A stretch of 64,000 bases of DNA. Origin: an uncultured Alphaproteobacteria bacterium (GTDB lineage: Bacteria > Pseudomonadota > Alphaproteobacteria > Rs-D84). The stretch's first letter is position 1; the number at the start of each line of letters is the position of its first letter. A program made the position numbers and the translations under genes. Under the pieces are notes generated by a model. That model was given only the letters and a program-made list of their open reading frames with translations. It had not been told where the DNA came from and did not search any database. Where the stretch lies: assembly GCA_937903135.1 (NCBI GenBank), contig CALDAH010000024.1:18471-82470 (forward strand), written 5' to 3'. Of this stretch, positions 14,970 through 60,960 are shown in pieces.

Positions 14970-15545
14970 TTATTTCATGTGAAATTGCCGGCAATTTTCA
15001 ATAATTGTTATATATCCATCCCCGGTCTTTGATGGGATTAATTTATAATCAAATTTATATTTTGTTTTGGCGGTCGCGATTTCGGATTCAATTTCCCGGC
15101 CTTTTAATAGAAAAAGCCGGCAATTTGTTTTCGCAACATAGTCCAAAATTTTTATTAACGGTGCAAATGCCCGTGCGGTAAATACCAAATCATTATGTCC
15201 ACGGGGCAGGGATGCAACATAATCTTCAACGCGGCCGTGGTATACGCAGAGATTCGGCAGATCAAGACCGTCCTTTAACGCGGATAAAAATGCGGCCTTT
15301 TTCCCGATGGATTCAATGCATGTAACGTCCCGGCCCAGGATTGCCAGTACGACACCCGGGAATCCTGCGCCGCTGCCGAGATCCGCGATTTTAACGCCCG
15401 CGGGTATTACGTCGGCCAGTTGGGCCGAATCGGCAAAATGACGTTCGGTTATATTGGACAGCGTGCTTGGCGCGACTAAATTCATACGGCCCGACCAGTC
15501 GCGTAGCATAGATTCGTATTGTTCAAATTTGACTTTGTTCTTCAT
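14970..15545 (-). CDS. rsmG: 16S rRNA (guanine527-N7)-methyltransferase RsmG (GidB).
   Basis: SAM-binding motif DLGSGAGFPG. The rsmG-parA-parB gene order is conserved. Confidence 0.85.
   Translation of the reverse strand: MKNKVKFEQYESMLRDWSGRMNLVAPSTLSNITERHFADSAQLADVIPAGVKIADLGSGAGFPGVVLAILGRDVTCIESIGKKAAFLSALKDGLDLPNLCVYHGRVEDYVASLPRGHNDLVFTARAFAPLIKILDYVAKTNCRLFLLKGREIESEIATAKTKYKFDYKLIPSKTGDGYITIIENCRQFHMK
14971..14986. promoter_or_regulatory. Second parS-like site, taTTTCATGTGAAAtt, overlapping the last codons of rsmG.
   Basis: It has the same TTTCATGTGAAA core as the site at 14842. Confidence 0.4.
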
Positions 15546-15566
15546 AATCGCTATTCTAACATAATC

Positions 15567-17186
15567 ATGAGAAAAATAGAATGTTTATTTGTTGGCGCGT
15601 GTGCATTGGCGGTAATTGTGGTTGCGGGCAATGGTATATGGCGTTATGTTGGCGGCGCAGAATCTGCGAATGTTGTGTATCAAACCCCTGTGACGAAATA
15701 CGGGGCATTTTTGGCGGCGCAGCATGCGATTTATGTAAATGATTTTGATAACGCGGCCAGGTTTTCAAAAACACTGGAAAACACCGACTATGCGATTGTT
15801 AAAAATACGCAGTTTATGTCAGAATTCCTTAGCGGGAAATTACCCGCCGGGGTTGAGATATTAAAGAAAGAAAAAAATACCGCCGCACGTTTAATCTATG
15901 ATGCGTATCTGGCCGAACGGGGCGATTGGGACGAGATGTATAAGCGTCATAAAAATGACGAGTCTGCATTGGCATCGCCGCTGCGAATATGGTCGTCGGT
16001 TGCGACCAAGCGGCAAAAGGATGCGTTAAAGTTTATTGACACGCTGCAGACAAACGATTCATGGAAAGCGTTTGTTCGCGGCCAGATTTATGCTGTGTCA
16101 GGGGACGCGGCTGCGGCCGCAAAATCGTTTGCGGATGTTCGTACGGATTTTCTGAATATTAATGATTATTTATATATTATGTCGTTTTATCGTCATAATA
16201 ACATGAATGATGCGGCCGATGATCTGCGTGATGATTTTACGTCTCGGCCGGGTGGGATGTTTATGCTGGGGTATGATAATATCCCGGATTGGTCTTCTTT
16301 TTCCGGGTATAAAAACGCATTGGCGTTTAGCTTGTTGCAAAATGTTTCCCATACCCAGATTATGATGTATTCTGATTTGGCGATCCTGATGCTGCGTTTC
16401 GCAGAAATTGTCGGCCCGGGTTTCGCAAAGGATAATGATGCAATTAATTATTATATCGGCCAGTTCTTTTATAATAACAGCGGGGATTATCAGAAACATT
16501 TTGATAAAATATCACATAATAGCCCGTTTTATTCGTTCGCTATTTTACGCGCCGCGGAAAAGAATAACGATATATCAAGGCTTGAACGCGAGGTTGAAAA
16601 TAACCCGTTATTTGTTCCGGCGCTAAATAAACTAATTGCGTATCATATTCAAAATGGTAATCGTTCACGGGCATTACAGACCGTTAATCGGGCGATAAAA
16701 ACCAAGAACTTAAATGACGTCGGCCAGGCATTTTTTAAAAAGAGCAGGGCGCATATTTACTATGTTTTCGGGGATTTAGATAAAGCGCAGTCGGACCTGC
16801 GGGCGGCATCAGATGTTTTGGCGACCGACGGCGAGATTTTATCGCTCCAGGCAAAAATCTGGGCGGCACGTAATCGCGAGATTGATAATGCATATGAATA
16901 TGCCATGACGTTGGTGCGACAAAACCCGGCGGATATTTTTGCGTGGGATACACTCGGGCGGGTCGTTCATGCCCGCGAAGGCGCAGACGAGGCGCTGGAT
17001 ATACTTGCGCGCGTCGGCGAGATGGCAAATTCATGTTCGGCGTTGTTTGAACATTTAGGGGATCTGTATATGGAAAAGGGTAATGAAAAATTAGCGCGTG
17101 ATTCATATATCCGGGCGATTGAATTATCCGATGACGGTTTGATTGTTGTTCCAAATGTTCGTAAAAAGTTAAGGAAAATAAAATGA
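15567..17186 (+). CDS. TPR-repeat protein with an N-terminal membrane anchor.
   Basis: N-terminal TM (LFVGACALAVIVVAG) followed by a C-terminal run of TPR-like helical repeats. Confidence 0.5.
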   Translation: MRKIECLFVGACALAVIVVAGNGIWRYVGGAESANVVYQTPVTKYGAFLAAQHAIYVNDFDNAARFSKTLENTDYAIVKNTQFMSEFLSGKLPAGVEILKKEKNTAARLIYDAYLAERGDWDEMYKRHKNDESALASPLRIWSSVATKRQKDALKFIDTLQTNDSWKAFVRGQIYAVSGDAAAAAKSFADVRTDFLNINDYLYIMSFYRHNNMNDAADDLRDDFTSRPGGMFMLGYDNIPDWSSFSGYKNALAFSLLQNVSHTQIMMYSDLAILMLRFAEIVGPGFAKDNDAINYYIGQFFYNNSGDYQKHFDKISHNSPFYSFAILRAAEKNNDISRLEREVENNPLFVPALNKLIAYHIQNGNRSRALQTVNRAIKTKNLNDVGQAFFKKSRAHIYYVFGDLDKAQSDLRAASDVLATDGEILSLQAKIWAARNREIDNAYEYAMTLVRQNPADIFAWDTLGRVVHAREGADEALDILARVGEMANSCSALFEHLGDLYMEKGNEKLARDSYIRAIELSDDGLIVVPNVRKKLRKIK

Positions 17187-24556: not shown

Positions 24557-26812
24557 ATGGCAGAAAAGTTCAAGATTTTATCAGCTGGCAAGGGTAAGGG
24601 TTTGAATATATTCAAATCCAGTGCGTATAAGGAACACGAACGTACGCCCCTGGCGCGTGAGTTTTGGGAACTGCGCTGGGCAATTGGTATATGGCTGGCA
24701 TGTGCGCTGGCGTTCGGTTTATCGTTTATTGCCGAGCATATATGGCGTTATGGCTGGTCGCCGGCATCGGTAAAATGGACGTCGTTATATCTGCATAATA
24801 TGCTAACAACTGGCGGCCTGTCGGTTATTGCCGAGATACCGTCATGGCTATGGCGATGCATTGCTAATACCGATTTGGCGTGTATGACGCCGTTGTTCCC
24901 GATAATTGCGTATTATTTCATGTCGGATAAAACGCTGGTATCGGAATTTAACCCGAATTCCAAGGATAAGTTTGATGAAAAAACATCAAACAAGGCCACA
25001 GCCGATGATATTAAAAAAATGGCCGCAGATCATAAAAACAAAGAAGGGCTGTTTAACGGTTTTATGATGGTTCTGGGGTATTTTAAGAACAAGGGTAAAA
25101 ACGCCCCGTTAAAGATGGATGAATGCTTATCGGCACTATTACTTGCCCCGGCGGGAACGGGTAAAACGGTTGGTGTCGTTATTCCGACGATATTGGAATG
25201 CGATAATGTTTCAATGATTATTAACGACCCTAAGCCTGAATTGAACGAAAAAACATCAGGGTATCGTGCATCAATCGGGCCGACGTTTATTATTAACTGG
25301 GGCGCACGTGATGAACCGGAACGTGGGATATACTATCCGTCATGGAATCCGCTGTCCCCGGAAAATATGCCATCCGACGCCGAGGCAAAAAGTACATACA
25401 TTCAGGTTATCGTAAATACATTAATAGAAGAAGCCCGCGGGAGTGCCGATCCCCATTGGTCGCAAAGTGGGCGTGCGGGTCTGACCGGATTTATTAATTT
25501 TATTGTATCAAAGGTTGAACGGGCCAAGGCAAACGATTATTTCTATTCGCGTATATCCAGCGGCGAATTTGACGCAGATGATGCGGCGATTCTGGCTGAC
25601 TATTATTTAACAATGACAAGCGACCCGAATGCGATCGCCGCGTTGGCATTGCTGCAAAGGGGCGAACTAAACGCGATGAATTATGTCCATGTCGGCACAT
25701 GGGACGGTGTTCCGGCCGAATGGCGCGGCCGCGAAGCGTCGTTCCCGATGTTTTTAGCATGGTACGCCGAGGGGCTGCTGCGCGTCGGCCGGGAAATTGA
25801 AAACCGCAAGCGTCAGGGCGATCAAATGGTTATGATGGCCGACCCGATGAAAGATTTTCTGTTATCGGCGGTGAACGAGGCGCAGCTATACTCATACGAA
25901 CAAGATGCCGTAACCGCGCTATTAAACCTGGCCAATACACCGGATAAGGAACGTGGATCGGTTATATCTACGATTAATACGGGGCTGAATATTTTCCGAC
26001 ACCCGGCCGTAAATAAACACACACAGCATTCGGATTTTCATTTTTCAGATATCCGCGGTATGCGTGACCCGCGCGATGGAAAAATTAAACCGGTTACGAT
26101 CTATCTGTCAATTAACGTCGCGGATTCTACGGCATTCAGTCAGATTACAAGTATGTTTATTGAACTGCTGTCAAAATACCTGATTGCGCACAAACCCGAC
26201 AGCGAGGCAAACGGAATAAAACAAGGCCCGTACCCCGCGCTGTTCGTATTGGACGAAATGCCGACGATGAATAAGCTTGAGGCGATTATCCAAGGGCCGG
26301 CGGTCGGCCGCGGCCAGAAAGTATCATACCTGATCGTCGGGCAGGACATAAGCCAGATTGCCGAAAAATACGGGGACAAAGCGGCCGATACAATTATCGC
26401 CAATACCGCGGCAAAGGTTATCTTGCGCGTAAATGAACCGATGACCGCGCGACGCTTTTCGGAAATGATGGGCGAAAAAATGAAAAAGAAAACGGTCAAA
26501 GGCCCGGATGGCAAAGATACCGAACAGACCGATAGTAGCCCGTTATTTACACCAATGGATTTAATGACACTGGATAAAAGCAAGCAGCTGGTTTTATTCC
26601 AAGGATTTTATAATCGCCCGATTGAAGCGTCCCAGGAACGCTGGTATCTGAATAAAAGCGATATAGAAAAACAGCTCTATCAGAAGGTATCCATGGGCGA
26701 AGCGTCCCCTGTACCGGAATTTATAATAAAATCCCATCATGCGGCACTGGGATACAGCGGCGATGCGCGTTTATACGACCCGGTCGCAAAAGAGGTTAAG
26801 GTATTAGCATAA
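24557..26812 (+). CDS. virD4: Type IV secretion coupling protein (VirD4/TraG family).
   Basis: Two N-terminal TM helices. Walker A (LLLAPAGTGKTVGVVIPTIL) closely resembles VirD4. A Walker B/DE region is also present (LFVLDEMPTMNKL). Length is 751 aa. Confidence 0.65.
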   Translation: MAEKFKILSAGKGKGLNIFKSSAYKEHERTPLAREFWELRWAIGIWLACALAFGLSFIAEHIWRYGWSPASVKWTSLYLHNMLTTGGLSVIAEIPSWLWRCIANTDLACMTPLFPIIAYYFMSDKTLVSEFNPNSKDKFDEKTSNKATADDIKKMAADHKNKEGLFNGFMMVLGYFKNKGKNAPLKMDECLSALLLAPAGTGKTVGVVIPTILECDNVSMIINDPKPELNEKTSGYRASIGPTFIINWGARDEPERGIYYPSWNPLSPENMPSDAEAKSTYIQVIVNTLIEEARGSADPHWSQSGRAGLTGFINFIVSKVERAKANDYFYSRISSGEFDADDAAILADYYLTMTSDPNAIAALALLQRGELNAMNYVHVGTWDGVPAEWRGREASFPMFLAWYAEGLLRVGREIENRKRQGDQMVMMADPMKDFLLSAVNEAQLYSYEQDAVTALLNLANTPDKERGSVISTINTGLNIFRHPAVNKHTQHSDFHFSDIRGMRDPRDGKIKPVTIYLSINVADSTAFSQITSMFIELLSKYLIAHKPDSEANGIKQGPYPALFVLDEMPTMNKLEAIIQGPAVGRGQKVSYLIVGQDISQIAEKYGDKAADTIIANTAAKVILRVNEPMTARRFSEMMGEKMKKKTVKGPDGKDTEQTDSSPLFTPMDLMTLDKSKQLVLFQGFYNRPIEASQERWYLNKSDIEKQLYQKVSMGEASPVPEFIIKSHHAALGYSGDARLYDPVAKEVKVLA

Positions 26813-30481: not shown

Positions 30482-30552
30482 TATAAATATATTTTTTGTG
30501 TTTTTATATAAAATACGATAAAATAATTCATGGATTAGATAAGGAGAAAGTA

Positions 30553-31200
30553 ATGAAAAAAATTGCATTATTTATGGCATTTGCCGGACTGCTGTCCGCG
30601 TGTACAACGGTAAATCCATATACAGGCCAGACCCAGACGTCCAAGGCCGTATGGGGATCTGCGATCGGCGCGGCAACCGGGGCAGCGACCGGCGCATTGG
30701 TCGCGAAAAAAAGCGGCACGGGCGCGATCGTTGGTGGTCTGGCCGGGGCAGCACTTGGCGGGGGCGTTGGATATTATCTGGACGCGCAAGAGGCAGAACT
30801 GCGTCAGGAATTGGAATCAACCGGGGTAAGCGTTGTTCGCGCCGACGACAGCATTCGTTTGGTTATGCCGGGAAATATTACATTTAAAACAGATTCATCG
30901 GATATAAACGCATCATTTTATGCGACATTAAATTCCGTTGCAAAGGTATTAAAGAAATACAGCAATTCAACCGTAATGGTATCCGGATTTACCGACAGCA
31001 CGGGCAGTGCGGAATATAACCAGGCACTGTCAAAGCAGCGTGCGACGGCCGTTGCCGCATACCTGGAAGGTCAGGGCGTCGCAGCACGTCGCTTTGAAAT
31101 TATCGGCATGGGCTCGTCCAATCCGATTGCGTCAAACGATACGGCCGCCGGGCGTGCCCAGAACCGCCGCGTAGAGATTAAAATTATTCCGAATAAGTAA
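30553..31200 (+). CDS. OmpA-family lipoprotein with a glycine-zipper segment.
   Basis: Lipobox LLSAC, a Gly-zipper (GSAIGAATGAATGALVA…GGLAGAALGGGVGY), and a C-terminal OmpA-like domain (TDSTGSAEYNQALS..RA…RRVEI). Confidence 0.7.
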   Translation: MKKIALFMAFAGLLSACTTVNPYTGQTQTSKAVWGSAIGAATGAATGALVAKKSGTGAIVGGLAGAALGGGVGYYLDAQEAELRQELESTGVSVVRADDSIRLVMPGNITFKTDSSDINASFYATLNSVAKVLKKYSNSTVMVSGFTDSTGSAEYNQALSKQRATAVAAYLEGQGVAARRFEIIGMGSSNPIASNDTAAGRAQNRRVEIKIIPNK

Positions 31201-31210
31201 TTTTAATGCT

Positions 31211-31242
31211 AAAAAAAAACACCGGATGCCGGTGTTTTTTTT
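31211..31242. terminator. Bidirectional terminator of the acaccggatgccggtgt family.
   Basis: Palindrome flanked by A9 and T8 runs, between convergent genes. Confidence 0.7.
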
Positions 31243-32299
31243 ATGGCGTATAATAACAATAATCCCATTCGCCGGACGGGGATCGGAATTCATATGTCCC
31301 GGTTTCATCACTGCCGCGATATGCATAGCACGACGTTAGATCATCGTATACATAATCCGTCCATTTGCAATCGCTGCTGATGCCCTTGCCGTATGCTTCC
31401 GGGTCGCCGTTGCAGCTTTGCAGTGTGTCTGTATAGTAAACATTTTGGGCCATTCCCGCGCCGGGGCATTTAACACATGACGGGTATGTTGCATCGTCGC
31501 CGGGATAGTATATAAACGACCCCGCCGGACAGAATATCTGTTCCCCGTTACACTTTGCCCCCGCCGGACACGATATGCATTTTGTTCCATCAACGTCAGA
31601 GAAGTATTGACCTAAATCATATTGGCCGGATGTGCAGATTTCGCTATCGCCGCCGTCGGGGGATTTGCAGGCGCTGGCCTGGGGCAGGGAATGATATCCG
31701 GCGACGCCGCTGGCCGCACCATTTGGGCACGAGAGGCATTTGCCGTTATTTAGATAATATCCCGAAATGCAATACGGCCCGCTGGTATTATTCAGGCTGT
31801 ATCTGCATGTCCCACTGCGTTCGCCGGTAAAATATAATTTAACATTCCCGCGCGTATAAGTACCGGTCGCCGCGTTATATGAATACACCCCCGTTTGCGG
31901 ATAGCTGCTGCTTAAACAAAATCCATTATAATCGCCAGTATATGGCGGGCTGCAAAAGTCAATATCGGATGTATCGGTATCTTCGCTGGTTCGCACGCGG
32001 GTATTTGCGGGGATTTCAATAACCTCTGCGTTGCTGCATTCAGATGCACTGCTGCATGAATTTTGCGCACCGGCGCATTGAAAGCATCCAACCGTTGCCC
32101 CGTTCTGATTATCATATACCGATACGCAGCCGGTGTTATTATAAACCGTGCCGATTGAATAACGCCCGGCAGAGTTATAAATAACATATTCTTCGGCGTT
32201 CCCGATGCTCTCGGTTGAATAATTCGGCATATCATAACGCGCATTCGCCGGATTGGATATGCAAAATAGTGTAAAAAAACCAACCTTTTGATTCGGCAA
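31241..32299 (-). CDS. Cysteine-rich secreted protein with CxxCPxG-type repeats. The start is TTG if the full ORF is used.
   Basis: The putative signal peptide is MPNQKVGFFTLFCISNPANA. About 40 Cys occur in 352 aa, arranged in recurring motifs such as CLSCPNGAASG, CISCPAGAKC, CVKCPGAGMA and FCPAGSF. No SD was recognised. Confidence 0.45.
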   Translation of the reverse strand: MPNQKVGFFTLFCISNPANARYDMPNYSTESIGNAEEYVIYNSAGRYSIGTVYNNTGCVSVYDNQNGATVGCFQCAGAQNSCSSASECSNAEVIEIPANTRVRTSEDTDTSDIDFCSPPYTGDYNGFCLSSSYPQTGVYSYNAATGTYTRGNVKLYFTGERSGTCRYSLNNTSGPYCISGYYLNNGKCLSCPNGAASGVAGYHSLPQASACKSPDGGDSEICTSGQYDLGQYFSDVDGTKCISCPAGAKCNGEQIFCPAGSFIYYPGDDATYPSCVKCPGAGMAQNVYYTDTLQSCNGDPEAYGKGISSDCKWTDYVYDDLTSCYAYRGSDETGTYEFRSPSGEWDYCYYTP

Positions 32300-32429
32300 T
32301 AATATCGCGAGGGAAATATGCAGAAATCCAAAAGATTATATAAAATAAATAACGCCGATCTAATTGTTGGTTTAGATTCGGCGCTATTTTTTGTTATCTA
32401 TGCTATGAATTATATGCCGTTGCAGGATT

Positions 32430-33551
32430 TTATTCAATTGTTTTTTTATTGTTCCCCCGGGCGTTATTTAATCGCAGCTGGCCGCATGCAGATCCGATAT
32501 CTGTTCCGCGTTCACGGCGAATACGTGTATGAATTCCGTTGCGGATTAAAATATCTTGAAAACGATGCACAGCATTACCCGACGGGGATGCAAAATCACG
32601 TTCATCAACCGCGTTCCACGGGATTAAATTTACCATACAGTTTTTCCCACGCAGCAGATCGGATAATTTTTCCGCATATTCGGCCGTTGCGTTATATAGA
32701 ACTGTATCGCCGTTTTCGTCCTTTTTCCCTAATAAAATATATTCAATCATTAACTGACGGTGATGCAGGTCGGTAAACGCATCTGCGGCCGTTAAAACAT
32801 CGGATAGTTTATATTTATTATTAATCGGCATTATCTGCCCGCGCAGATCGTCCGTCGGTGCATGCAACGATATCGCCAGGTTAATTGGCCGACCCCATTT
32901 AATCAGATCATAAATACCCGGGACAATCCCACACGTAGATAATGTAATTCGTCGCCAACCGATTCCCATATCGCGATTTGCCCGTTCAATAAATCCGATA
33001 ACATTTTCTGTATTCATCAGCGGTTCGCCCGTCCCCATTATAACGATATGCGACACATCACCGTTATTCGGGTCGCCATTGGGGCGAATAGGGCGGTCGG
33101 CGGCGCGATCGGTGCGCAGTTGCCATTGGGCGACCAGGATCTGGGAAAATATTTCATTCGCAGTCAGATTGCGTTTCAGCCCCAGCAAAGTACTGGCACA
33201 GAAACGGCATCCCATCGCACATCCCGCCTGAGAGCTGACGCAGACGCTGTTGCCGTATGTTGTGCGCATTAATACGCATTCTATTTGCTCGCCATCATTT
33301 AATTGCAACAAAAACTTAGTGGTTTCGCCATCGGCCGAGTCCAGTTTTTGTATGATTTCAACAGGCAGTGTTCGTGCGGTGTTGTTTAAATCACGTCGCA
33401 GGGACTCGGGCAGATTTTTCATAACACTGAAATCAGGTGCGCCGCGGTTTAACCATTCACGAATTTGTCGTGCGCGAAATCGCGGTTGACCCATGTCGGC
33501 GACAAACTGATCCAGCTCTGCGTCGGTTAAGTTAAATAATATAGGTTTCAT
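32430..33551 (-). CDS. rlmN: 23S rRNA/tRNA adenine-C2 methyltransferase RlmN (radical SAM).
   Basis: CxxxCxxC cluster GCAMGCRFCAS, with the conserved RlmN N- and C-terminal Cys residues. Confidence 0.9.
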   Translation of the reverse strand: MKPILFNLTDAELDQFVADMGQPRFRARQIREWLNRGAPDFSVMKNLPESLRRDLNNTARTLPVEIIQKLDSADGETTKFLLQLNDGEQIECVLMRTTYGNSVCVSSQAGCAMGCRFCASTLLGLKRNLTANEIFSQILVAQWQLRTDRAADRPIRPNGDPNNGDVSHIVIMGTGEPLMNTENVIGFIERANRDMGIGWRRITLSTCGIVPGIYDLIKWGRPINLAISLHAPTDDLRGQIMPINNKYKLSDVLTAADAFTDLHHRQLMIEYILLGKKDENGDTVLYNATAEYAEKLSDLLRGKNCMVNLIPWNAVDERDFASPSGNAVHRFQDILIRNGIHTRIRRERGTDIGSACGQLRLNNARGNNKKTIE

Positions 33552-49660: not shown

Positions 49661-51022
49661 ATGATTTTGCAATCGCAACGTGGTAATTTTTTACTTCAGG
49701 CATTATTAGCACTTGCGTGCATATTTGCATTCATTCCGTTTTTTGCAAACACTATTGCCGCGCGCGACACTAACGAACGAATGTTCGCCGCAACCGGTCA
49801 AATTGAACAGGCCCAGGCCGCCGCGCGAATTTTCATACGTGAAAACGCAAACGCGCTGCCATATGATAAAACGGTTATCGCCGGTAATCAATTCGCCGAT
49901 ACGCTTGAAGCGTACGGACTGCCGCTGGGGTTTGTACCGCGAACGGCACTGGGACAGGATATTGCATTGGTTATAAATAAAACCGCGACAGATATAACGG
50001 CGCATCTGGAAGTTACGGGCGGTGATCTATCGGCGATTGCCCGGGCAGAGCTAATACGCCGTATCGGTTTTTACGCCACGCCGTTCGGGGATGCAATACG
50101 CGTCGGAATTGCGCTGGAAAATATTTATTCAGATGTTGTTCGCCGAAATGAACCCGATACGGATAATAACGGTTTTTTAACTAATCTGGATATGGGGGGA
50201 AATACATTTAATAACGCCGGCACGGCGATTGCACGCCAAGGGGATTTCGCCACGGGGGAATTTAAAACACTTTCCATCATCGGGTTTGAAAACGGGCGCA
50301 GGGTTCGCAATTCAATTGCTGCGATTTCCGCGAATAAGGCGGTGTTTCAAACCAAATCAGGCGAGGCGGCATTATCCATTACCCGCGGGGTTTTATCGGC
50401 GGATGAAATAAATGCAAAAACAATTGCTAAGTTCGGGGACACGGGGAATTTTACATCAAATTCCGCATCGGTTTATGATTTTGCAATGACGGCGGGGCGG
50501 ACGGGTTTTTCCGGCCCGGATAAATGGAACGTTCGCGGAAACCTTGTATCGGATCGGGTTACGTTTAGTGTTGAACGACTGGACGTGGATTCATTTGTAA
50601 ACGCGTCCCGCGGCCAGGATGTTTATATTACCCCGGATGATTTGGAATATAATTCGCGCAGTGGAATTGACGCCGGGGTTTTAATCGCATCAAATATAAC
50701 GCTGCGCGATCAAACGTCCGCTGCATTGGCGAACGGCGAAAGCGGTGCTGTGGTGGTTGATATTCGCCCGGCCGGGACGTCTGTGCTGCCGGATGTTTTG
50801 CTGGAAACAATTGATAATAACGCGTTTAGTATAATTGCCCGGCCGGGGGCGAACGATGATAAGATGCAGAATTGTCGTACGATAATATCTGATCTGAATG
50901 CATCATATAACCAGCGTTCGCTGGCGCAATATATTATTTGCCAGTATGTATATTGGCAGCGACTGGAAAAAAGAATTGATATAAAGGAATGTTTGTTATC
51001 AGGCAGGGGGGGCTGTGTATAA
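49661..51022 (+). CDS. Large pseudopilin-like protein 1 (prepilin-type N-terminus, Gln at +5).
   Basis: The N-terminus is …QR-G-NFLLQ-ALLALACIFAFIPFF. An SD (aggaggg) abuts the ATG, and a TTG at 49667 is an alternative start. The gene overlaps the next gene by 8 nt. Confidence 0.45.
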   Translation: MILQSQRGNFLLQALLALACIFAFIPFFANTIAARDTNERMFAATGQIEQAQAAARIFIRENANALPYDKTVIAGNQFADTLEAYGLPLGFVPRTALGQDIALVINKTATDITAHLEVTGGDLSAIARAELIRRIGFYATPFGDAIRVGIALENIYSDVVRRNEPDTDNNGFLTNLDMGGNTFNNAGTAIARQGDFATGEFKTLSIIGFENGRRVRNSIAAISANKAVFQTKSGEAALSITRGVLSADEINAKTIAKFGDTGNFTSNSASVYDFAMTAGRTGFSGPDKWNVRGNLVSDRVTFSVERLDVDSFVNASRGQDVYITPDDLEYNSRSGIDAGVLIASNITLRDQTSAALANGESGAVVVDIRPAGTSVLPDVLLETIDNNAFSIIARPGANDDKMQNCRTIISDLNASYNQRSLAQYIICQYVYWQRLEKRIDIKECLLSGRGGCV

Positions 51023-52217
51023 ACGGAATGGGATTTTTTCGGATCTATCGCGTGGCGCCAGTGTAACAGAGGTTTTACTGGCCATGGCAATTGTTACCAT
51101 GGCGGCCCCGTTTGTTTATAACCAGATCGCCCAGACCAACCGGGATATTCGCGATATATCCATGGCACGTGATATAATCGCACTGCGTGATCCGGCGTTG
51201 AATTTTATTCGCATAAACCAAGACTCGTGGCCCGATGCCGCGCAGATACAATTATCAGACGATGAATTGGATCAGATATCAGATACAGCATTTGCGGGAT
51301 TTATTGATAAATATTCTGTTAAGGGCGCAGGTATTACGGATGTTTATTTGGCGTTTAATACACATGATTCACAGTTGCATGCGAACCGCATCGCGCGTCA
51401 GATTGGTGATAGCGCGGCCGTGGTTGACGCATCCGGCGTTGCATATGGCAATACATGGGCGATATCCGCACCGGATTTAAAGCCCGGGGATTTAATATAT
51501 CGCATATCACGTGATTTTTCCGGGAACGATAAAACCAAATACCTGCATCGTGCAACGTCCGGGGATGATAATTTAAATGTTATGCAGCGTGATTTACATA
51601 TGGGCGGGTTTAATGCGTATAATATCGGGACTGCGTCGGCGGAATCTGCGCGGATTAATTCGGCCGTTGCGATGTTTGTCACATCGGACGATGTGTCGGC
51701 CGAAAATATATATTTTTCATCGGGCGCAAATATGGACGGTGGAAACGCTGCAATTGGAACTATGCGCGTATCGGGTGATATAACGGGATTTCGGAATATA
51801 TACGCGGATAATCTAAACGGCGGGGGATATACCACGGCCGGGCGTATTATTGCCGATCGCGCACGGGTAAATAATTCTGTAAACGTTGCCGGGGATTTTG
51901 TTTTAAAATCAGATTCTGCGCGAACGATCAGTGCGTTTACCGGGATTCGGGCAAATTCTGTTTATACAACATCAATAACCGCATCCGAGATGGTGTTCTA
52001 CGGTAACGTCGGGCTGACGGTATCGGGCGAGCTGTTAATGTCAACAACCCCTGCGTTAAAGATCGGCGGTTGGTCATTCCCATCGCTGACGCCGCCACGG
52101 TTTGATGAACTGTCGCTGTCGCGCGCGGCAATCCCGGCAACGCCGGTCGCGGATGAATTTGCGCCGCTAATGTCGTCCGGATGGCAGGATATTCCCCCAA
52201 TAACAGAGGTACAATGA
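51015..52217 (+). CDS. Large pseudopilin-like protein 2 (GTG start).
   Basis: The N-terminus is …SR-G-ASVTE-VLLAMAIVTMAAPFVY. A GGGGGG SD lies upstream. The gene overlaps the next gene by 4 nt (ATGA). Confidence 0.45.
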   Translation: MYKRNGIFSDLSRGASVTEVLLAMAIVTMAAPFVYNQIAQTNRDIRDISMARDIIALRDPALNFIRINQDSWPDAAQIQLSDDELDQISDTAFAGFIDKYSVKGAGITDVYLAFNTHDSQLHANRIARQIGDSAAVVDASGVAYGNTWAISAPDLKPGDLIYRISRDFSGNDKTKYLHRATSGDDNLNVMQRDLHMGGFNAYNIGTASAESARINSAVAMFVTSDDVSAENIYFSSGANMDGGNAAIGTMRVSGDITGFRNIYADNLNGGGYTTAGRIIADRARVNNSVNVAGDFVLKSDSARTISAFTGIRANSVYTTSITASEMVFYGNVGLTVSGELLMSTTPALKIGGWSFPSLTPPRFDELSLSRAAIPATPVADEFAPLMSSGWQDIPPITEVQ

Positions 52218-53527
52218 AAACGCAAAATCGGATCTTTAACAACGAAGCGCGCGGCAGCATGCTGGTTGAATTACTGCTAAGTGTTGCGCTGGCGGTATTG
52301 ATTATTCCGTTTATATTTCGCTATCAGCATGATGCGGCCCGGCGCGCTGAAAATATTGCAATCGTTAATCAGATGGAAACAGTTCAGGCCGCATTAGAAC
52401 GATATATTATTGATAACCGCGTGGAATTATTAAAAACCGTTGGCAAAAATATTACGCGCGTTGAAATCACAGATTTAATTAACTATGGCGTTCCGGAAAG
52501 TATTGTTGATAAATTCGGGGCCGACTATCAGCTGCGTGTATTAAAAACAAATGATATAAATAATCAGTCCACGCTTCAGGGGGTCGTTGTTTTATCATCG
52601 CGCGATATCACACCGGTTCGTACGCGTGAAATTGTTGGAATCGGCGGCACTTCTATGGGGTTTGTTGATGGTAATCATGCGTATGGATCATTCGGGGCAT
52701 GGCATACGGATTTAATTGATCTCGGGATCGCGGGCGACGGCGGTGTTATTCAGACCACGCCCGTTCAGCGTGATAATGCGCTTTATCTATGGCGCGTCCC
52801 GTCGGATAACGACAGCGATGCGACAATGATGACGTCATTAAACCTTGGTGGGCATGATATTACAGGGGCGAAGTATTTTGATATCGCCACCGCCCGATTT
52901 GACGAGGTTATTAATTCATCAATTATTGCGGCCGGGGATATTATTTTTCAAAACCGCACGACCATAGATAAAACATTTATTGCAAACTCTGCGGCGGTTG
53001 CCGGTACATTATCTGCGGATTCGCGTAATATGGAAATCACAGGTGCATTAAAGCTGGCGGATGTTGGAAAATTTTCAAACTTTACAACGAATGATTTATG
53101 GGTAACGAACTTAAATCTATCGGGGTTAACGGTATCCGGGGATGAATACGGTGCGGTTATGATAAACATAAATCGTTCGCTGGATATGAACGCCGGTCGT
53201 ATTGATGCGATGTTTGCAACGGTCGGTTTTACAGGATCTATTACGCCGCGATTGGTCGTCCGCGAAAGAATAGAAGATTCAACAAACCCTGAATATTTTT
53301 GGGATACAGAATATCGTGTTGCGAACTTTATGGATCTGACCTCGCGAGAGCTTAATCGCATGGCGACATTAATCGTGGCGCGGGAAAAGGGTGGCAATAC
53401 TGCCGCGGGCAAAGCATTCGCAGCGGTTGCCGCGAACAAGAACGCAACAGTCGCGGATTTTATGAACGTAATTACAGATATTCAGAATAAAGTCCGCGCA
53501 AAATATCGCCTGTTGAATTTAGAATAA
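52214..53527 (+). CDS. Large pseudopilin-like protein 3.
   Basis: The N-terminus is MKTQNRIFNNEA-R-G-SMLVE-LLLSVALAVLIIPFIF. An SD (agagg) lies upstream. The 'N/R-IF' segment before the RG is shared with protein 2. Confidence 0.5.
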   Translation: MKTQNRIFNNEARGSMLVELLLSVALAVLIIPFIFRYQHDAARRAENIAIVNQMETVQAALERYIIDNRVELLKTVGKNITRVEITDLINYGVPESIVDKFGADYQLRVLKTNDINNQSTLQGVVVLSSRDITPVRTREIVGIGGTSMGFVDGNHAYGSFGAWHTDLIDLGIAGDGGVIQTTPVQRDNALYLWRVPSDNDSDATMMTSLNLGGHDITGAKYFDIATARFDEVINSSIIAAGDIIFQNRTTIDKTFIANSAAVAGTLSADSRNMEITGALKLADVGKFSNFTTNDLWVTNLNLSGLTVSGDEYGAVMININRSLDMNAGRIDAMFATVGFTGSITPRLVVRERIEDSTNPEYFWDTEYRVANFMDLTSRELNRMATLIVAREKGGNTAAGKAFAAVAANKNATVADFMNVITDIQNKVRAKYRLLNLE

Positions 53528-55556: not shown

Positions 55557-58500
55557 ATGTTTGTCCTGAAAAAAACTATCAGTTTTATCGCTGTTTTCAG
55601 CGTATTACCGGCGGCATTCGCGGTTACGGCACGCCCGAGTATTGTAATGAAGGCGTCACCACGTATGCCGACAATGACGGCAAATATAAACAATAATAAT
55701 ACAACCACGTCCGGGACAACGGTTAATTCATCAACCCTATTGGCGAACGCCGAATGCATAGAGGCGTATACTTCATGTATGAAATCAGCGGATGCATGTG
55801 GCCCGAATTTTGAAGAATGCACAAACAAGGTATTATTCCACGGAAAAATGCCCCAGTGTTTAAGTACACTTGCCCAGTGTTCAGCGGCCGGTGTAACCAG
55901 CCTTTACGGGACAAGTAATACTGCCGCATTATCCACGGTCGCATCAACCAACAGCTATGGCGAGGTTACAAACTACACATACCCGACCGACGGCAGTGTT
56001 TTAGGGCAGTTAATCACCGGTGCGGCGATAACTAACCGTTATGATACGTCAACCTGCGTTCGTCGTTATACATCGTGTTTAAAGAAAGACACCGTATGCG
56101 GTAATGATTTTGAATTATGCACAACAAACGCAGAATTTAAAAAACAACGCGTATTTTGCGATTCAACCCTTGCACGCTGCCAGGGCGAAGGGATAACAGA
56201 ATTATTCGGATCAGCCTCTCTAACGGCGGCCCCGAGTGCGAGCAGTCGCGTCGGTGAAATGATCGCCGAAGGTGCGGCACTGGCGGCCGTTAATGCCGTT
56301 TCAACGTGTTATAAGGTAATTGATAACTGCATCCTGGGGGCATGTGCGGCGAACCCGTATAAGTGTTATGAAAACACCCCGGTTGTAAATGCCGAATTGG
56401 CCGATGCAATAAACAGCGGCGATGATAAAAATCCGGATATAAACAATACCGATACGACCACGGCGTCGTCGGTCGCGGCATATATCCGCAATTCGTGCAA
56501 GGATACAATCGGCGCAAATAAATACTGCTATGCGACATTTATCGGTAACGGTAATATGCCAACCGCATCCCAGCTGCGCGACGAAGATAACCAAGACGAA
56601 ATTTATTCCGAAGCCTACAGCGCACGTATGGGCGACGGGATGAAGGCACAGATAACAGAGCTGGTAAATAAATTTGATACCAAGGCTAAAAATAAATGTA
56701 TTGATACAATTAAATCCTGTGCGATGCGCGTTTGCGGCAGTGGCAGTGGCGCGGCATGCTATTCCCAGGTATTCGGATCAACGTCTAAATCCATTAACGC
56801 CGGGAATAATTATAATGAAATTAAAACCGGATGCGCGGCGATTGTAAATACGGACGCGAATTGCAAATATGCAGCTAAAAATACAACTGGCGTTGGCACG
56901 TATTCATATGCATTTATTAACACAGATGCATTTGATACGCTGTTCCCGGAATACGACACCAACAGCACAGACAATGACCCGATCGGCGTAATTGCGTCGC
57001 TGAACGCGTCATTGGCAAACAGCTACAGCGATGCGGCGATTGCGCAGATGAAAAAGCAGTGTCAGTCGGTTGCCAGCAGCTGTGTTAAATCAATGTGCGG
57101 GGCAGATTATCAAAACTGCTATCGTAACCGTACGGATGTATATTCGTCATTAACAGATACAGGTGATACACGTTTTGATAAATCCATGAACAAGGTAGGC
57201 GGCGTACTTGACTACACTATCGTTCTGGGGCTGTGCGTTGATACAGTTAAAAACGCATCTGTATGCGAAGAACATTTGGCAATTGAACAACAAAAATTAA
57301 AAATGAACAATTCAAATGCCGCCACCAGCTGGGGTGATGCAAATAACGTCCGCGGCGGCTGGATTGATGCCGGCTCAACATCCAAGATGGAATTTGCAGC
57401 CGAGAGTGTTCAGGCCGTTGATGAAAACGGTAATAACCTCTGCACGGTCAAAGGTGGCACGGAACAGGGCGTATGCTATACCGTTGACGCCAACGGCAAG
57501 GTATATGATACCCCGGCGATGATTTCGTATTCTACGTATGTTGAATCCCAGGCGGCAAATACGTTGTTTAAAGATTTAATATACGACCTAGAGATCGAAG
57601 CCCAGGCAAAATATAACGCGAAACTAACCAAAGAACAGAATATGTGCATGGCCAATAATGATGGTGGCCTGATGGGGAATCGTGATGCCGGCAGCACATT
57701 TATGTGGGTAAAACTGCGTTCTGCGAAAGTCCCGGCGAACTATGCGACGGCCGGACTTACCCCGAAACAGTTCGTGGCCAGCAATGATTTATACGGTTCA
57801 TTCTGTCGCGTTCGTGTTACATTGCAATCCGACGATCGTCGTATCCAGGATGTAATTAACAAAGGCGCAGACTGGGCAACCGCGTATTTCGCAACAGGTG
57901 ACGTATTTACCTGCGGCAGCTGGATACCGGCCGAAGCATTAGAAGAAATTGCAAAAGACGTTGCAAAAGATGCAACCGAGGATCAGGCCGCGGCACAGAA
58001 ACGTACCCGGACATGGCTGACCATATTAGGTGGACTGGGCGGTACAACGGGCGGCGCGTTCTTAGGTGAATCTATCCGCACCGGGAATACACTGGGTGGC
58101 CTAACGGGGCTAGGTGACGGGAATAAGGCGGATAAGAGCTCTAAAACCGATGCTAAAATGTGCCTTAATAACCTGGAATATGCCGCAGATGATCTAAATG
58201 ATGATAGTCTGTCAAATGCTGCGTACTCTATTGACACGGCCATAAGCTATGCTAAAAAGGCAAAGGTTTCGGATTCTGCGCTGACCGTTGCATCAAATGC
58301 CGCCAGCAATTTAAGAAAGGTTGTTGATGAATCCAGCGTTAGCGCCGAAAACAAAACAGTTGATAAAACCACTGCAATCAGAGAGGCCGAAACCGCGATT
58401 CGCAATCTGGAAACACTATGCGAACGCGTTGACGATGAAAAAAGCGATAAAGATAATAGTGGCAAGGGTTGGATTACAGGCGTTTCAACCGTCGCAATGG

Positions 58501-58682
58501 GTACGGCAGGTGCATTGTTGATTAACAAGGCCACCCGTGACATCCAGCAAACAAATCTGGATAAGGCACAAAGAGAGGCCTATGATGAATGGATGAATGC
58601 GATCGGGCGTCATATCAACTGCTATATCGGCGCAGAAGAAGCCGGACAGTATGGTGATATCGTATCAACGTCGCTGGAATAA
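55557..58682 (+). CDS. Giant cysteine-rich secreted or surface protein (1041 aa) with an internally duplicated Cys module.
   Basis: The signal peptide MFVLKKTISFIAVFSVLPAAFAVTA follows an SD (ggagtgag). An Asn/Thr-rich stretch comes next. Two modules of about 95 aa are clearly repeated (…CIEAYTSCMKSADACGPNFEECTNK…C…C and …CVRRYTSCLKKDTVCGNDFELCTTN…C…C). Further Cys-pair motifs follow. The C-terminal region has Gly-rich hydrophobic stretches (LTILGGLGGTTGGAFLG and GVSTVAMGTAGALLI). Confidence 0.55.
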   Translation: MFVLKKTISFIAVFSVLPAAFAVTARPSIVMKASPRMPTMTANINNNNTTTSGTTVNSSTLLANAECIEAYTSCMKSADACGPNFEECTNKVLFHGKMPQCLSTLAQCSAAGVTSLYGTSNTAALSTVASTNSYGEVTNYTYPTDGSVLGQLITGAAITNRYDTSTCVRRYTSCLKKDTVCGNDFELCTTNAEFKKQRVFCDSTLARCQGEGITELFGSASLTAAPSASSRVGEMIAEGAALAAVNAVSTCYKVIDNCILGACAANPYKCYENTPVVNAELADAINSGDDKNPDINNTDTTTASSVAAYIRNSCKDTIGANKYCYATFIGNGNMPTASQLRDEDNQDEIYSEAYSARMGDGMKAQITELVNKFDTKAKNKCIDTIKSCAMRVCGSGSGAACYSQVFGSTSKSINAGNNYNEIKTGCAAIVNTDANCKYAAKNTTGVGTYSYAFINTDAFDTLFPEYDTNSTDNDPIGVIASLNASLANSYSDAAIAQMKKQCQSVASSCVKSMCGADYQNCYRNRTDVYSSLTDTGDTRFDKSMNKVGGVLDYTIVLGLCVDTVKNASVCEEHLAIEQQKLKMNNSNAATSWGDANNVRGGWIDAGSTSKMEFAAESVQAVDENGNNLCTVKGGTEQGVCYTVDANGKVYDTPAMISYSTYVESQAANTLFKDLIYDLEIEAQAKYNAKLTKEQNMCMANNDGGLMGNRDAGSTFMWVKLRSAKVPANYATAGLTPKQFVASNDLYGSFCRVRVTLQSDDRRIQDVINKGADWATAYFATGDVFTCGSWIPAEALEEIAKDVAKDATEDQAAAQKRTRTWLTILGGLGGTTGGAFLGESIRTGNTLGGLTGLGDGNKADKSSKTDAKMCLNNLEYAADDLNDDSLSNAAYSIDTAISYAKKAKVSDSALTVASNAASNLRKVVDESSVSAENKTVDKTTAIREAETAIRNLETLCERVDDEKSDKDNSGKGWITGVSTVAMGTAGALLINKATRDIQQTNLDKAQREAYDEWMNAIGRHINCYIGAEEAGQYGDIVSTSLE

Positions 58683-59332: not shown

Positions 59333-59356
59333 AAAATCCCCGGGCGGGGATTTTTT
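59333..59356. terminator. Terminator (aaaatccccgggcggggatttttt) at the 3' end of the minus-strand secreted-protein gene.
   Basis: Perfect GC stem with flanking A- and T-runs. Confidence 0.6.
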
Positions 59357-60647
59357 ATGGACACATCTCCAATTGATTTAAAACATTTTGAACGTCGTTA
59401 TTAACCGATACCGTTATCTCGCGCTGCAGGCCATCGGTGTATGTATAATAAAACTTTTGGCGGGCAAATTCCGGCATCTGTTTATATACCTCGGCAAACG
59501 GGGCCAGCATTGCGCTGAACCATTGGCGTCCGCGGCACAGACATCCGTTTCGTACGTCCGCCGCAACTGCCGCCGTCGCGGTATTCGGGTATTTCGTATC
59601 AAAGTCTTTGTCCGTCATCATTAAACAGCGCGCCCCTAGGCCGTAAAAATTAGCATCATCGGCCAAGAATTTATATACCAGGCCATCGGATGCCCCCGCC
59701 TGGCGCAGGGAATATGCCATCCCGTCTGTACAGCATGCGTTTGCCGACCCCATTAGCATTTTATAGCGCTGCAGCAACGGCGCGGCCGCCGGATGTGATG
59801 CGCTAATCTCAGGGTTGCAGCGGGCGGCGTTGATAAATTCCGCCATATTTATATCACGGATTTTCGGGCTTCGCGGCGATACGGTTTCGCGAATTATTGG
59901 TTTTCTGCGCCATATCTCGCATTCGGTCTCGGCCTCAAACGGGCAGCCATCGGCGCGGCCGAATGTCTGCTCTACTATCACCGTCATATCCTGGGCGGTA
60001 TATTCCGGGCGCGGCGCAGGAACGGCGACAGCCTCTGGGGCGGGGGGCGTTTCTGTGACCGAAACGTTTTCGGCCCAGATATTCCCGGATGGCCGTTTAG
60101 GGCTCAGCAGCTCTTCTACGCGGGCACGCGTCGCCGCCGCATCCGCCATATTTTGGTTATATAGCTCGGTTATATTTATATCTTCGGTCATTACCGCCGG
60201 TGCGATCGGCCGAGTGTCTGCCTCGCGCAGGTAAATCTCGGGCAGTGGCTCTAAGAACCAGTCGCTAAAATCCTTGGACTTATAATTTACAATAGAATCG
60301 TCCCAGATCGGAACGCCATCGCGCCAGTCCACCGTTTTATCCGCCGCGCGTGCGGTATATTTACCCGTCGTGCCATCCCATAATGGCGCACGAGTATCCG
60401 CCGGGACCGGCTTTATAGATAATGTTTTTACCGAACGCATTGGAATCTGCGTTGCATATATATATTCCGTCGGACCGGCATATGACGGTACGGCCGCCAT
60501 CGGGGCGGGTAATACTGCCGGCTCTTGAATCTGGTCTATATATAAAGGTTCAATATAACATCCCGCGCCAGTGCATTCGGACGCCATGGCCGGAATTGCC
60601 CCACATAAACATATCAGGGACGAAAAAGTTACAATTTTCATTTTCAT
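59355..60647 (-). CDS. Secreted hypothetical protein.
   Basis: The ORF extends to 60875, but the signal-peptide-like MKMKIVTFSSLICLCGAIPAMASE begins at 60647. The protein is Pro/Ala-rich with 10 or more Cys, and no family was recognised. The start is uncertain. Confidence 0.4.
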   Translation of the reverse strand: MKMKIVTFSSLICLCGAIPAMASECTGAGCYIEPLYIDQIQEPAVLPAPMAAVPSYAGPTEYIYATQIPMRSVKTLSIKPVPADTRAPLWDGTTGKYTARAADKTVDWRDGVPIWDDSIVNYKSKDFSDWFLEPLPEIYLREADTRPIAPAVMTEDINITELYNQNMADAAATRARVEELLSPKRPSGNIWAENVSVTETPPAPEAVAVPAPRPEYTAQDMTVIVEQTFGRADGCPFEAETECEIWRRKPIIRETVSPRSPKIRDINMAEFINAARCNPEISASHPAAAPLLQRYKMLMGSANACCTDGMAYSLRQAGASDGLVYKFLADDANFYGLGARCLMMTDKDFDTKYPNTATAAVAADVRNGCLCRGRQWFSAMLAPFAEVYKQMPEFARQKFYYTYTDGLQREITVSVNNDVQNVLNQLEMCP

Positions 60648-60960
60648 AATACGAATCATATCATAAAAAGCAGTGCTTTGAAAATATAAAATTTGATCTG
60701 GCGGCATTATTAGTAAGGTTTTTTCGGTATATATCGGTATATATAAAACGAATCGTTGCCGATTCTGTCGTATTTTTACAATAAATTTATAAAAATGAAT
60801 CGGTTTTTTGCATAAAACCGAATCGTAAAAGGGGTAAAAAAACAAAAAAATCAAAAAAATAAAAAAATTTTTCAATAGGATAAAATGGCGGAAATCCGGC
60901 GTTTTTCCTATGTTTTTATGGCCGGGGATAAATTTTTTTAAAATTATTTTTCAAAAAGCG

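Follow-up and report, generated by a model that had tools for sequence, protein, structure and literature searches.

A cysteine-rich gene with a weak start codon

This study concerns a gene for a cysteine-rich exported protein, and the leader in front of it, in a 64,000-nucleotide stretch of contig CALDAH010000024.1 (assembly GCA_937903135.1), which in its full length is called the window below. The DNA belongs to Candidatus Enterousia, a gut alphaproteobacterium of the order Rs-D84 that is uncultured and has a reduced genome: its RlmN is 79-87% identical to the RlmN of 80 species-representative metagenome-assembled genomes (MAGs) of mammalian or avian gut origin, which carry the labels Candidatus Enterousia, "Alphaproteobacteria bacterium" or "uncultured Rickettsiales". 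Enterousia (Rs-D84) are uncultured gut bacteria with genomes of ~0.75-1 Mb, without tricarboxylic acid cycle or respiratory chains, and are probably partner-dependent (PMC12306168).

A first-pass annotation, made from the letters alone, had described here a 352-aa open reading frame (ORF) with a putative signal peptide, a weak start and flanking terminators, and had read it as a eukaryote-like cysteine-rich repeat protein. The ORF is confirmed on the minus strand with a TTG start, and is intact and constrained (Table 1). Its product holds 24 cysteines (6.8%), well short of the ~40 that had been claimed, together with 40 Ser, 38 Gly, 35 Tyr and 27 Thr residues, the last three in keeping with the Tyr/Gly/Thr-rich segments described. 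All four motifs that had been quoted were recovered, namely CLSCPNGAASG (residues 188-198), CISCPAGAKC (241-250), FCPAGSF (256-262) and CVKCPGAGMA (275-284). A purely compositional origin of such motifs can be excluded: C..CP.G occurs twice and CP.G three times, counts equalled in 4 and 34 of 100,000 shuffles of the mature sequence, respectively. The N-terminus, MPNQKVGFFTLFCISNPANA followed by RY, has a hydrophobic core and an AxA cleavage site that are kept in the orthologues, and by rule-based judgement its n-, h- and c-regions (MPNQK, VGFFTLFCI and SNPANA before R) agree with Sec export, as the putative signal peptide had implied. The weak start is real as well, in that the TTG is preceded by no Shine-Dalgarno (SD) sequence.

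In a word-index protein search, only three relatives were found: the same protein called from Met24, P0002 (59% identity) and P0003 (~40% identity). The three full-length sequences (the window protein, P0002 and P0003) open with MP(N/K) and have every one of the 23 mature-protein cysteines in common. The gene for P0002 (locus L001) occupies the same slot between rlmN and an ompA-like gene, with two additional genes inserted, and the window gene itself recurs with at most one single-nucleotide polymorphism in four more assemblies, while none of the 80 Enterousia representatives carries a homologue next to rlmN. Against P0002, dN is 0.36 and dS is saturated, so that a dN/dS ratio is not computable; this dN is about twice that of LptD or LptF/G and about four times that of RlmN or the OmpA-like protein. 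Because the orthologues are conserved and dN stays at 0.36 with saturated synonymous sites, sequence comparison indicates that the gene is real, constrained and fast-evolving, and the lack of conservation that the first-pass annotation had named as a reason for doubting the ORF is not observed.

A conserved leader with repeated start sequences

In the protein family to which the gene belongs, the first five codons are conserved in nucleotides ((A/T/G)TGCCGAATCYAA), though the members' proteins are only ~30% identical, and a second copy of this start sequence ("box 1") lies exactly 85 nt upstream at every locus. Across at least six genomic contexts (downstream of rlmN, prfA, RNase PH etc.), nine leaders align nearly gap-free over 166 nt and share one order of elements: a sigma-70-type promoter (TTGNNN-17-TATAAT, with hexamers conserved in eight of the nine), box 1, an inverted box that forms a hairpin with box 1, the motif AAAAATCCCAGATTTCTGCAT-TTTT-CTC, and box 2, which is the ORF start. 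The motif AAAAATCCCAGATTTCTGCAT-TTTT-CTC is a start module in reverse, its CCCTC complementing an SD (GAGGG or GGGAG) and its CTGCAT complementing ATGCAG.

Several other identities for the leader elements were tried and rejected. The spacing and conservation of the conserved motif do not, on inspection, fit a sigma-54 or EcfG promoter, and the GGA of a CsrA-type loop is absent from the window and L001. A tandem duplication of promoter and start as the source of the 85-nt repeat was dismissed on the weakness of the similarity, and GCCGAATC is not a significant genome-wide repeat, with 9 occurrences against 4.5 expected.

Inversion of the start module at sister loci

A search with an nhmmer profile built from the leader turned up a locus with two divergent copies, and this locus was then compared between samples. 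L092 is identical to L093/L094 over 7,239 bp save for 87 bp (2583-2669), where they are exact reverse complements. The inverted stretch spans from the inverted box to box 2, with the crossover at Val-Gly codons; the crossover cores are GACG...CGTC at the L092 locus and AACG...CGTT at a second locus, corresponding to GTTGGTTT/AAACCAAC in the window. We call the orientation ON when the SD and ATG of the segment face the gene, and OFF when they face away. In a second species, one locus is OFF in L097-L100 and L090, and ON in L103 and L104. The ON product predicted from the OFF DNA of L097 (MGIFSKTQTGIIN-VGFW) is identical to the deposited protein P0028 (376 aa vs 368 aa for the OFF form), whose loci L103 and L104 carry the inverted segment. 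Between species, orthologous loci also differ, L087 being OFF and L088, L089 and L102 ON. Overall, two species show both orientations across samples, and a third orthologous pair differs between species.

The two orientations have consistent contents. All intact OFF instances carry SD and ATG on the opposite strand with 11 codons in frame through the inverted box ("...MPRTIVPL", "...NADLIVGL"), whereas both ON instances carry SD and ATG at -33, in frame on the gene strand, giving the N-termini MRVSRLFLNIK-MPNLIIGF... (P0015) and MRKTGIFICEF-MPRTIVGL.... Across the family, the start module comprises SD, ATG and 11-16 codons in a segment of ~87-89 bp; starts in the OFF orientation are TTG or GTG in five of nine cases, while the intact flip-in starts are all ATG. 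In-frame ON products have been deposited by gene callers as P0015 and P0028. OFF is also the majority state at flipping loci, the 368-aa OFF form P0017 being present in 151 blocks of the collection vs two P0028 ON contigs. Two features of an inverton are in place, an inverted-repeat-flanked segment in all family leaders and both orientations within species at two sister loci. One further candidate pair was discarded: P0037 (417 aa) is not an OFF allele of P0015, as the DNA is identical and merely the start call differs.

In the L092/L093 locus, two cassettes stand back to back and divergent (2581-2955). The minus-strand cassette, which is the flipping one, governs a 213-224-aa cysteine-rich secreted protein ending CYYSN; the 224-aa form in L093 was rejected as a family member, as it shares the cassette and one C-x-x-G-Y-Y...C-x-x-C-P module with non-significant homology. 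The plus-strand cassette has no promoter and carries two copies of the box at a distance of 85 nt. It stands in front of P0030, which has a start of its own, a GTG with a strong SD, at a point farther downstream. A roe-deer MAG (JAFTPS01) holds P0030, the 224-aa protein on the divergent cassette, and a decayed copy after rlmN (L029, 7109-8645). There the leader cassette has its flip-in ATG mutated to ATC and the frame downstream is broken into a 54-codon MPNLNGGL... ORF, a 108-aa lipoprotein-like ORF and a 360-aa glycine-rich ORF, so that L029 appears to be a decayed or re-used switch before a different surface-type gene.

The window copy of the cassette

The window copy shares the architecture of the sister loci at which inversion is shown, with its start module intact and in frame. 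Its arms at 32277-32292 and 32358-32373 are 81% complementary over 16 nt, stand 65 nt apart and have an 8-bp perfect core. The SD, spacer and ATG are all preserved on the plus strand, where the ATG opens an otherwise spurious ORF (32318..32776, MQKSKRLYKINNADLIVGL...). Judged by its sequence, the window copy is in the OFF state, and the inverted position of the start module accounts for the TTG start without SD. In-silico inversion of 32281-32369 (~89 bp) joins SD and ATG in frame to the gene, with a predicted 363-aa product that begins MQKSKRLYKINNADLIVGFFTLFCISNPANA and continues RYD.... The predicted ON signal peptide has a net charge of +4 over its first 12 residues vs +1 in the OFF form and a maximum 9-aa Kyte-Doolittle score of 2.6, while its h- and c-regions are unchanged.

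Folding of the leader RNA also differs between the two states in the predictions. In the OFF leader (-32.5 kcal/mol), UUAUUUAUUUU comes after a hairpin of 17 bp, and the TTG region is paired in a second hairpin; in the modelled ON leader (-20.5 kcal/mol) the box 1 hairpin is reduced to 8 bp without a U-run behind it, and the SD is left unpaired. The U-rich run after the window leader hairpin (32331-32346) makes it terminator-like, and the hairpin stands just downstream of rlmN. With a second hairpin beyond the other end of the gene, hairpins are present on both flanks, where terminators had been noted.

Table 1. Positions of the putative switch elements and of the cysteine-rich gene in the window
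Feature	Position	Strand	Basis or remark
Inverted-repeat arm A (TTGCCGAATCAAAAGGTTGGTTT on gene strand; present start codon and codons 2-8)	32277..32299		Repeat search; same place as at flipping loci
Inner invertible segment	32300..32352		Conserved in family leader alignment
Outward-facing start module: SD GAGGG (32309-32313), 4-nt spacer, ATG (32318-32320)	32309..32320	+	Read from sequence
Inverted-repeat arm B (plus strand CGCCGATCTAATTGTTGGTTT; 8-bp perfect outer core GTTGGTTT/AAACCAAC)	32353..32373		Repeat search
Predicted flipped junctions: ...AAACCAAC joined to CTTTTGATTCGGCAA... and ...CTAATTGTTG joined to GTTTTTTTACA...			
Sigma-70-type promoter TTGAAT-17-TATAAT, fixed, outside the inverton	32409..32437	-	-35 hexamer overlaps rlmN stop codon
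Leader hairpin: box 1 (GCGCCGAATCTAA, third copy of the start sequence, 85 nt upstream) and arm B	32347..32389	-	RNAfold, z = -4.2
Cysteine-rich ORF, OFF-orientation reading	31241..32299	-	352 codons, TTG start, 24 Cys
Signal-peptide-like N-terminus, OFF form (MPNQKVGFFTLFCISNPANA, predicted cleavage after ANA)	32240..32299	-	Read from sequence; family-conserved
Mature N-terminal region, residues 21-170, 8 Cys, subfamily-specific	31790..32239	-	Alignment and model
C-terminal cysteine-rich domain, residues 171-352, 15 Cys, common to the whole family	31244..31789	-	Alignment, AlphaFold2, fold searches
Bidirectional terminator-like hairpin CACCGG-ATG-CCGGTG between A-run and T-run	31211..31242		Shared with convergent ompA-like gene

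The protein family and its fold

A profile search of 1.84 billion representative proteins returned 12 proteins, 266-421 aa in length, with residues ~113-352 of the window protein in common; they have one bacterial architecture, and those with a labelled source come from Alphaproteobacteria or Rickettsiales MAGs. Family members measure 336-428 aa, and in cluster look-ups every named one is annotated "hypothetical protein"; one group, P0016/P0017, is widely represented, with 151 blocks of the collection. Other members are located downstream of prfA or of the RNase PH gene, next to an ompA-UDG-infC group, or amid outer-membrane-protein genes. Scans with family patterns found no relative in the GTDB representative genomes and only two loci in the JGI metagenomes. 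Under the explanation favored below, the family is likely to be confined to Candidatus Enterousia and its relatives among the Rs-D84 gut Alphaproteobacteria.

Three C-x-x-G-x-[YF]-x(n)-C-x-x-C-P-x-G-x(n)-C modules make up the C-terminal domain, together with a beta-hairpin region that comes after them and ends C-[YP]-Y. C222 and C241 are jointly missing from P0007, P0010 and P0011, and the cysteine totals of the mature proteins step by twos (21, 23, 25, 27); because of this joint loss and stepwise variation, the pattern supports disulfides rather than metal sites. The total is odd in every family member, with the unpaired cysteine within the C-terminal domain (15 cysteines in the window protein, 17 in P0005), which hints at a conserved free thiol that could serve, for example, in an intermolecular disulfide or a covalent dimer. 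The proteins do not look like lipoproteins, as the conserved lipobox cysteine is missing: about half of the members have a cysteine in the signal peptide, mostly in poor context, and P0003, P0005, P0008 and P0012 have none there.

The first-pass annotation had likened the protein to furin-like, EGF-like or VSP-type repeats and had suggested domain searches. A Pfam-A hmmscan of the window protein and 14 family members at E <= 10 gave no match to Ephrin_rec_like/GCC2_GCC3, Furin-like, EGF, VSP or TNFR_c6; the best matches, all below cut-offs, were DUF723 (E = 0.11) and DUF7631 (best E = 0.0023). NCBIfam gave no usable match, and a PDB sequence search with two profiles gave none. The AlphaFold2 (AF2) model of the whole protein is mediocre (pLDDT 63), with residues 117-176 predicted at low confidence, while the C-terminal domain alone was modelled with pLDDT 77.7 and pTM 0.72, the 10-residue blocks across domain residues 51-180 averaging 70-94. 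Three Foldseek searches against PDB and BFVD found nothing significant (best E-values 0.06, 0.044 and 0.0095; TM-scores 0.1-0.3). The top ranks in PDB were nearly all cysteine-rich domains of the TNFR superfamily (DcR3, CD40), CaSR and EphA2, meckelin, and ErbB/insulin-receptor regions, and those in BFVD were viral TNFR homologues.

On the models, the nearest structural class would be the TNFR/ephrin-receptor/furin-like cysteine-rich modules, as a local likeness in which membership is not demonstrable. What is shared with TNFR, Ephrin_rec_like (GCC2_GCC3) and furin-like domains is the C-x-x-G-x-[YF]...C-x-x-C pattern and, as predicted, a beta-hairpin module that would be stapled by disulfides. 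By contrast, profile matches are lacking, the overall arrangement differs (TM-scores ~0.15-0.3), and the present family, unlike these domains, has an odd number of cysteines and a bacterial, periplasmic or secreted context. The earlier comparison therefore holds for the cysteine-rich repeats and the ranking of folds, but not for a significant match or a Pfam membership.

Cysteine-containing, apparently exported ORFs also occur beside family members, including a 250-aa ORF starting MRGCINALDSCMQDDFVCGSDYENC... in L090 (6-758) and a 257-aa ORF with ~10 Cys in L002 (1568-2341). Nearby, L090 also has genes for two predicted outer-membrane beta-barrel-like proteins ending in F. The lineage may hold several families of disulfide-rich envelope proteins.

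Proposed mechanism and alternative explanations

We consider it likely that the gene encodes an exported disulfide-rich protein of Enterousia/Rs-D84, probably a surface or secreted binder of adhesin-like kind, that is switched on and off by DNA inversion. In this mechanism, the fixed promoter at 32409-32437 would transcribe the leader, and a segment of ~89 bp (roughly 32281-32369) between imperfect inverted repeats, one arm of which is the first eight codons of the ORF, would flip, bringing with it an SD, an ATG and codons for a Lys/Arg-rich signal-peptide n-region. In the OFF state the start module would face away and the ORF would keep its TTG without SD, with the leader predicted to form a terminator-like hairpin and U-run and a second predicted hairpin pairing with the TTG region. 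In the ON state, inversion would fuse SD and ATG in frame and yield the 363-aa protein. The inversion would be catalyzed by a site-specific recombinase encoded elsewhere. By analogy with the sister loci, the window copy would still flip, and the position of SD and ATG, the deposited in-frame ON products and the leader folds point to an OFF state that silences the gene.

The surface location and binding function are suggested by the fast evolution, the subfamily-variable N-terminal half and the presence of several switch-equipped cysteine-rich genes in a single genome (JAFTPS01), all of which would suit a binding protein that is secreted or surface-exposed. In gut bacteria, surface structures are the typical targets of phase variation (PMC11892184; PMC2784873). 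The family might thus provide a variable repertoire for contact with the host or partner, or for evasion of immunity or phage. More tentatively, and somewhat short of what we would call probable, the system may be an undescribed mini-inverton of ~87 bp that flips only SD, ATG and n-region, in which the third repeat copy serves as an OFF-only terminator hairpin and which could give rise to a multi-gene, variable TNFR-like coat.

Several observations weigh against the proposed switch. The window locus is OFF in all five assemblies (the window and four others) and could be locked, and an exact look-up of the predicted 363-aa ON protein in a collection of 15 billion proteins found no entry. No recombinase was found among the 49 of 61 window ORFs of >=150 aa that were scanned with Pfam, the remaining 12 overlapping annotated genes in another frame or strand. 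Even under a lax definition, only 14 of 36 window genes have an SD-like motif within 20 nt upstream, so that translation initiation in this organism is often SD-independent; because ~60% of window genes have no such motif, a missing SD alone is no proof of silence, and the OFF state may leak. The leader is also less uniform than its alignment, as a U-run follows the hairpin in the window, L001, L087 and L002 but is lacking in L092, L095 and L096, and the predicted RNA folds vary between instances. The invertible segment (~87 bp) is shorter than those of well-studied switches, such as the 195-bp segment of cwpV (PMC2784873). On the side of the protein, the fold matches that bear on surface binding are not significant, and disulfides are proposed for an anaerobe reported to be without respiratory chains (PMC12306168).

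Some of these points would equally fit a silent relic, in which the window copy is permanently OFF behind a decayed switch and its ORF persists by chance or was inactivated very recently. The uniform OFF state, the missing ON protein, and L029, a related leader that has lost its flip-in ATG and is followed by a disrupted gene, all speak for this. Yet the 352-codon ORF is intact with its cysteines kept relative to orthologues of 59% and ~40% identity, the window SD, ATG, frame and repeat core are all preserved, and OFF prevails at demonstrably flipping loci too (P0017 over P0028), all of which make a relic unlikely.

Less likely still is a leader that acts mainly as a riboregulator, with box 1, its complement and the start region in alternative pairings, and with DNA inversion as an incidental property. 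In the minimum-energy folds of L087 and L088, the start region does pair with the 3' arm of the hairpin (14 bp; z = -4.2 and -3.5), and the start region of the window pairs with CUUUUGGAUU. However, the probability that the start region is paired varies from 0.28 to 0.84 between instances, and the z-scores of L001 and L090 are non-significant. Rfam has no match for the leader and RNAalifold gives no consensus structure across the leaders; together with the inconsistent per-sequence folds, these results led us to reject the leader as a structured RNA. Its complementarity follows from the DNA inverted repeats, whose inversion is observed.

The origin proposed in the first-pass annotation, an effector gained horizontally from a eukaryote or another endosymbiont and mimicking host furin/EGF/VSP-type proteins, is very improbable. 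It has in its favor the C-x-x-C-P-x-G and C-P-x-G-[ST]-[FY] motifs and an AF2 model that resemble eukaryotic or viral TNFR and ephrin-receptor domains, and a host lineage thought to be partner-dependent (PMC12306168). No eukaryotic or viral sequence homologue was found, though, in the 1.84 billion representatives or in a word search of 5.8 billion clusters, Pfam, NCBIfam and PDB gave no sequence match, and the fold matches are local as well as not significant. Composition, which the annotation had wished to see compared with neighboring genes, is likewise genome-typical: GC is 0.492 vs 0.474 +/- 0.026 and GC3 0.50 vs 0.47 +/- 0.04, and codon usage, ~1.5 standard deviations low, is unremarkable. 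With no family or eukaryotic match and ordinary GC and GC3, there is no evidence for a eukaryotic or recent horizontal origin, and the lineage-specific cassette of promoter, leader and signal peptide implies long residence in these bacteria.

Finally, orientation differences as assembly artefacts at short inverted repeats can practically be dismissed, for although all evidence comes from metagenome assemblies at contig level, the arms are imperfect and their perfect cores (4-8 bp) lie far below the assembler k-mers (contig names show k119 and k141), so that real reads must span each junction, each orientation is found repeatedly, in independent samples and in two species, and the flipped form always gives an in-frame SD and ATG with a canonical signal-peptide n-region, which is unexpected of an artefact.

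Comparison with known phase-variable systems

Invertible promoters have been catalogued in gut bacteria with PhaseFinder, and in Mycoplasma penetrans each mpl gene has an invertible promoter and thus a switch of its own, which allows combinatorial ON/OFF states. A close parallel in layout is the Clostridioides difficile surface-protein gene cwpV, in which a fixed promoter also lies upstream of an invertible leader segment, an intrinsic terminator is proposed to arise in the OFF orientation, and the recombinase is encoded elsewhere (Emerson et al. 2009, PMC2784873), as we suppose here. The cwpV segment, however, measures 195 bp and contains no part of the ORF, whereas the segment described here measures ~87-89 bp, has one repeat inside the ORF and holds SD, start codon and 11-16 codons, so that the N-terminus changes too. 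Unlike that of cwpV, the present switch is also repeated over a gene family.

Variable surface-protein families of reduced-genome, host-associated bacteria, such as vpma of Mycoplasma agalactiae (PMC2268961) and mba/UU172 of Ureaplasma (PMC3047005), share with the present family conserved 5' regions and signal peptides as well as site-specific inversion at short repeats near the 5' end. These systems and mpl differ in that a promoter is moved or entire genes are exchanged at one expression site, whereas here the promoter is fixed and the translation-start module flips; the proteins here are also non-lipoproteins, in an alphaproteobacterial host. The type of switch described here belongs to the class of partial intergenic invertons (PhaVa preprint, 10.1101/2023.03.11.532203), with which it shares a repeat-flanked segment that overlaps a gene end, a gut bacterium as host, a surface-related gene and the presence of both orientations in the data. 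Members of that class have been described mostly as long shufflon-like domain swaps, in contrast to the very short start-codon ON/OFF module seen here. Among top-ranked literature results for the terms Enterousia and invertons, no paper named both.

In Enterousia, a widespread gut lineage, a secreted family whose members are switched one by one points to molecules that are exposed and varied, with adhesins, immune targets and phage receptors as candidate roles. If the proposed reading is true, a partner-dependent gut bacterium of ~1 Mb would gain a combinatorially variable surface coat, possibly with TNFR-like modules aimed at the host or partner cell. The switch is also compact in design, with only SD, start codon and n-region in ~87 bp, an orientation-dependent terminator and one arm within the coding sequence. 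In practice, OFF-state starts are called inconsistently (Met24, 329 aa, in one assembly; TTG, 352 aa, in another), and at one locus the OFF state yields only a truncated fragment call; weak-start ORFs can therefore flag invertons in assemblies. As the ON/OFF ratio is readable from existing metagenomes (SRR30634807, SRR30634796, SRR30634811 and DRR868332, for instance, include the species of the window), the ecology of the switch is testable across host species, diet, inflammation and phage load.

Genomic setting

The gene is flanked by rlmN (32430..33551, minus strand) on one side and by a convergent gene of the OmpA family with a glycine zipper (30496..31200) on the other. Farther out, accB/accC lie to one side and lptD, lptF/G and a SurA-like gene to the other, and a 16S rRNA gene and the beginning of a 23S rRNA gene lie close to the window end. 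A VirD4/TraG-type coupling protein of a type IV secretion system (T4SS; domains T4SS-DNA_transf, TraG-D_C and TrwB_AAD_bind) is encoded at 24557-26812 (plus strand), adjoining mreB, which suggests a Rickettsiales-like T4SS; we found no link between this coupling protein and the Sec-exported cysteine-rich protein. The window also contains long ORFs (351-1041 aa) without any Pfam match, at 49661-53527, 55557-58682, 59355-60875, 1166-2221 and 15519-17186.

Among Enterousia species (loci L007-L086), gene content is highly variable in the interval from rlmN to the ompA-like gene, a hot spot that is either empty (38-124 bp) or filled with unrelated cargo. The cargo seen includes a 189-aa histidine-phosphatase-like ORF, a ~250-aa ORF, a 325-aa glycosyltransferase-like ORF and a TrmH-like ORF, and in L001 a protein with a BstA_C domain.

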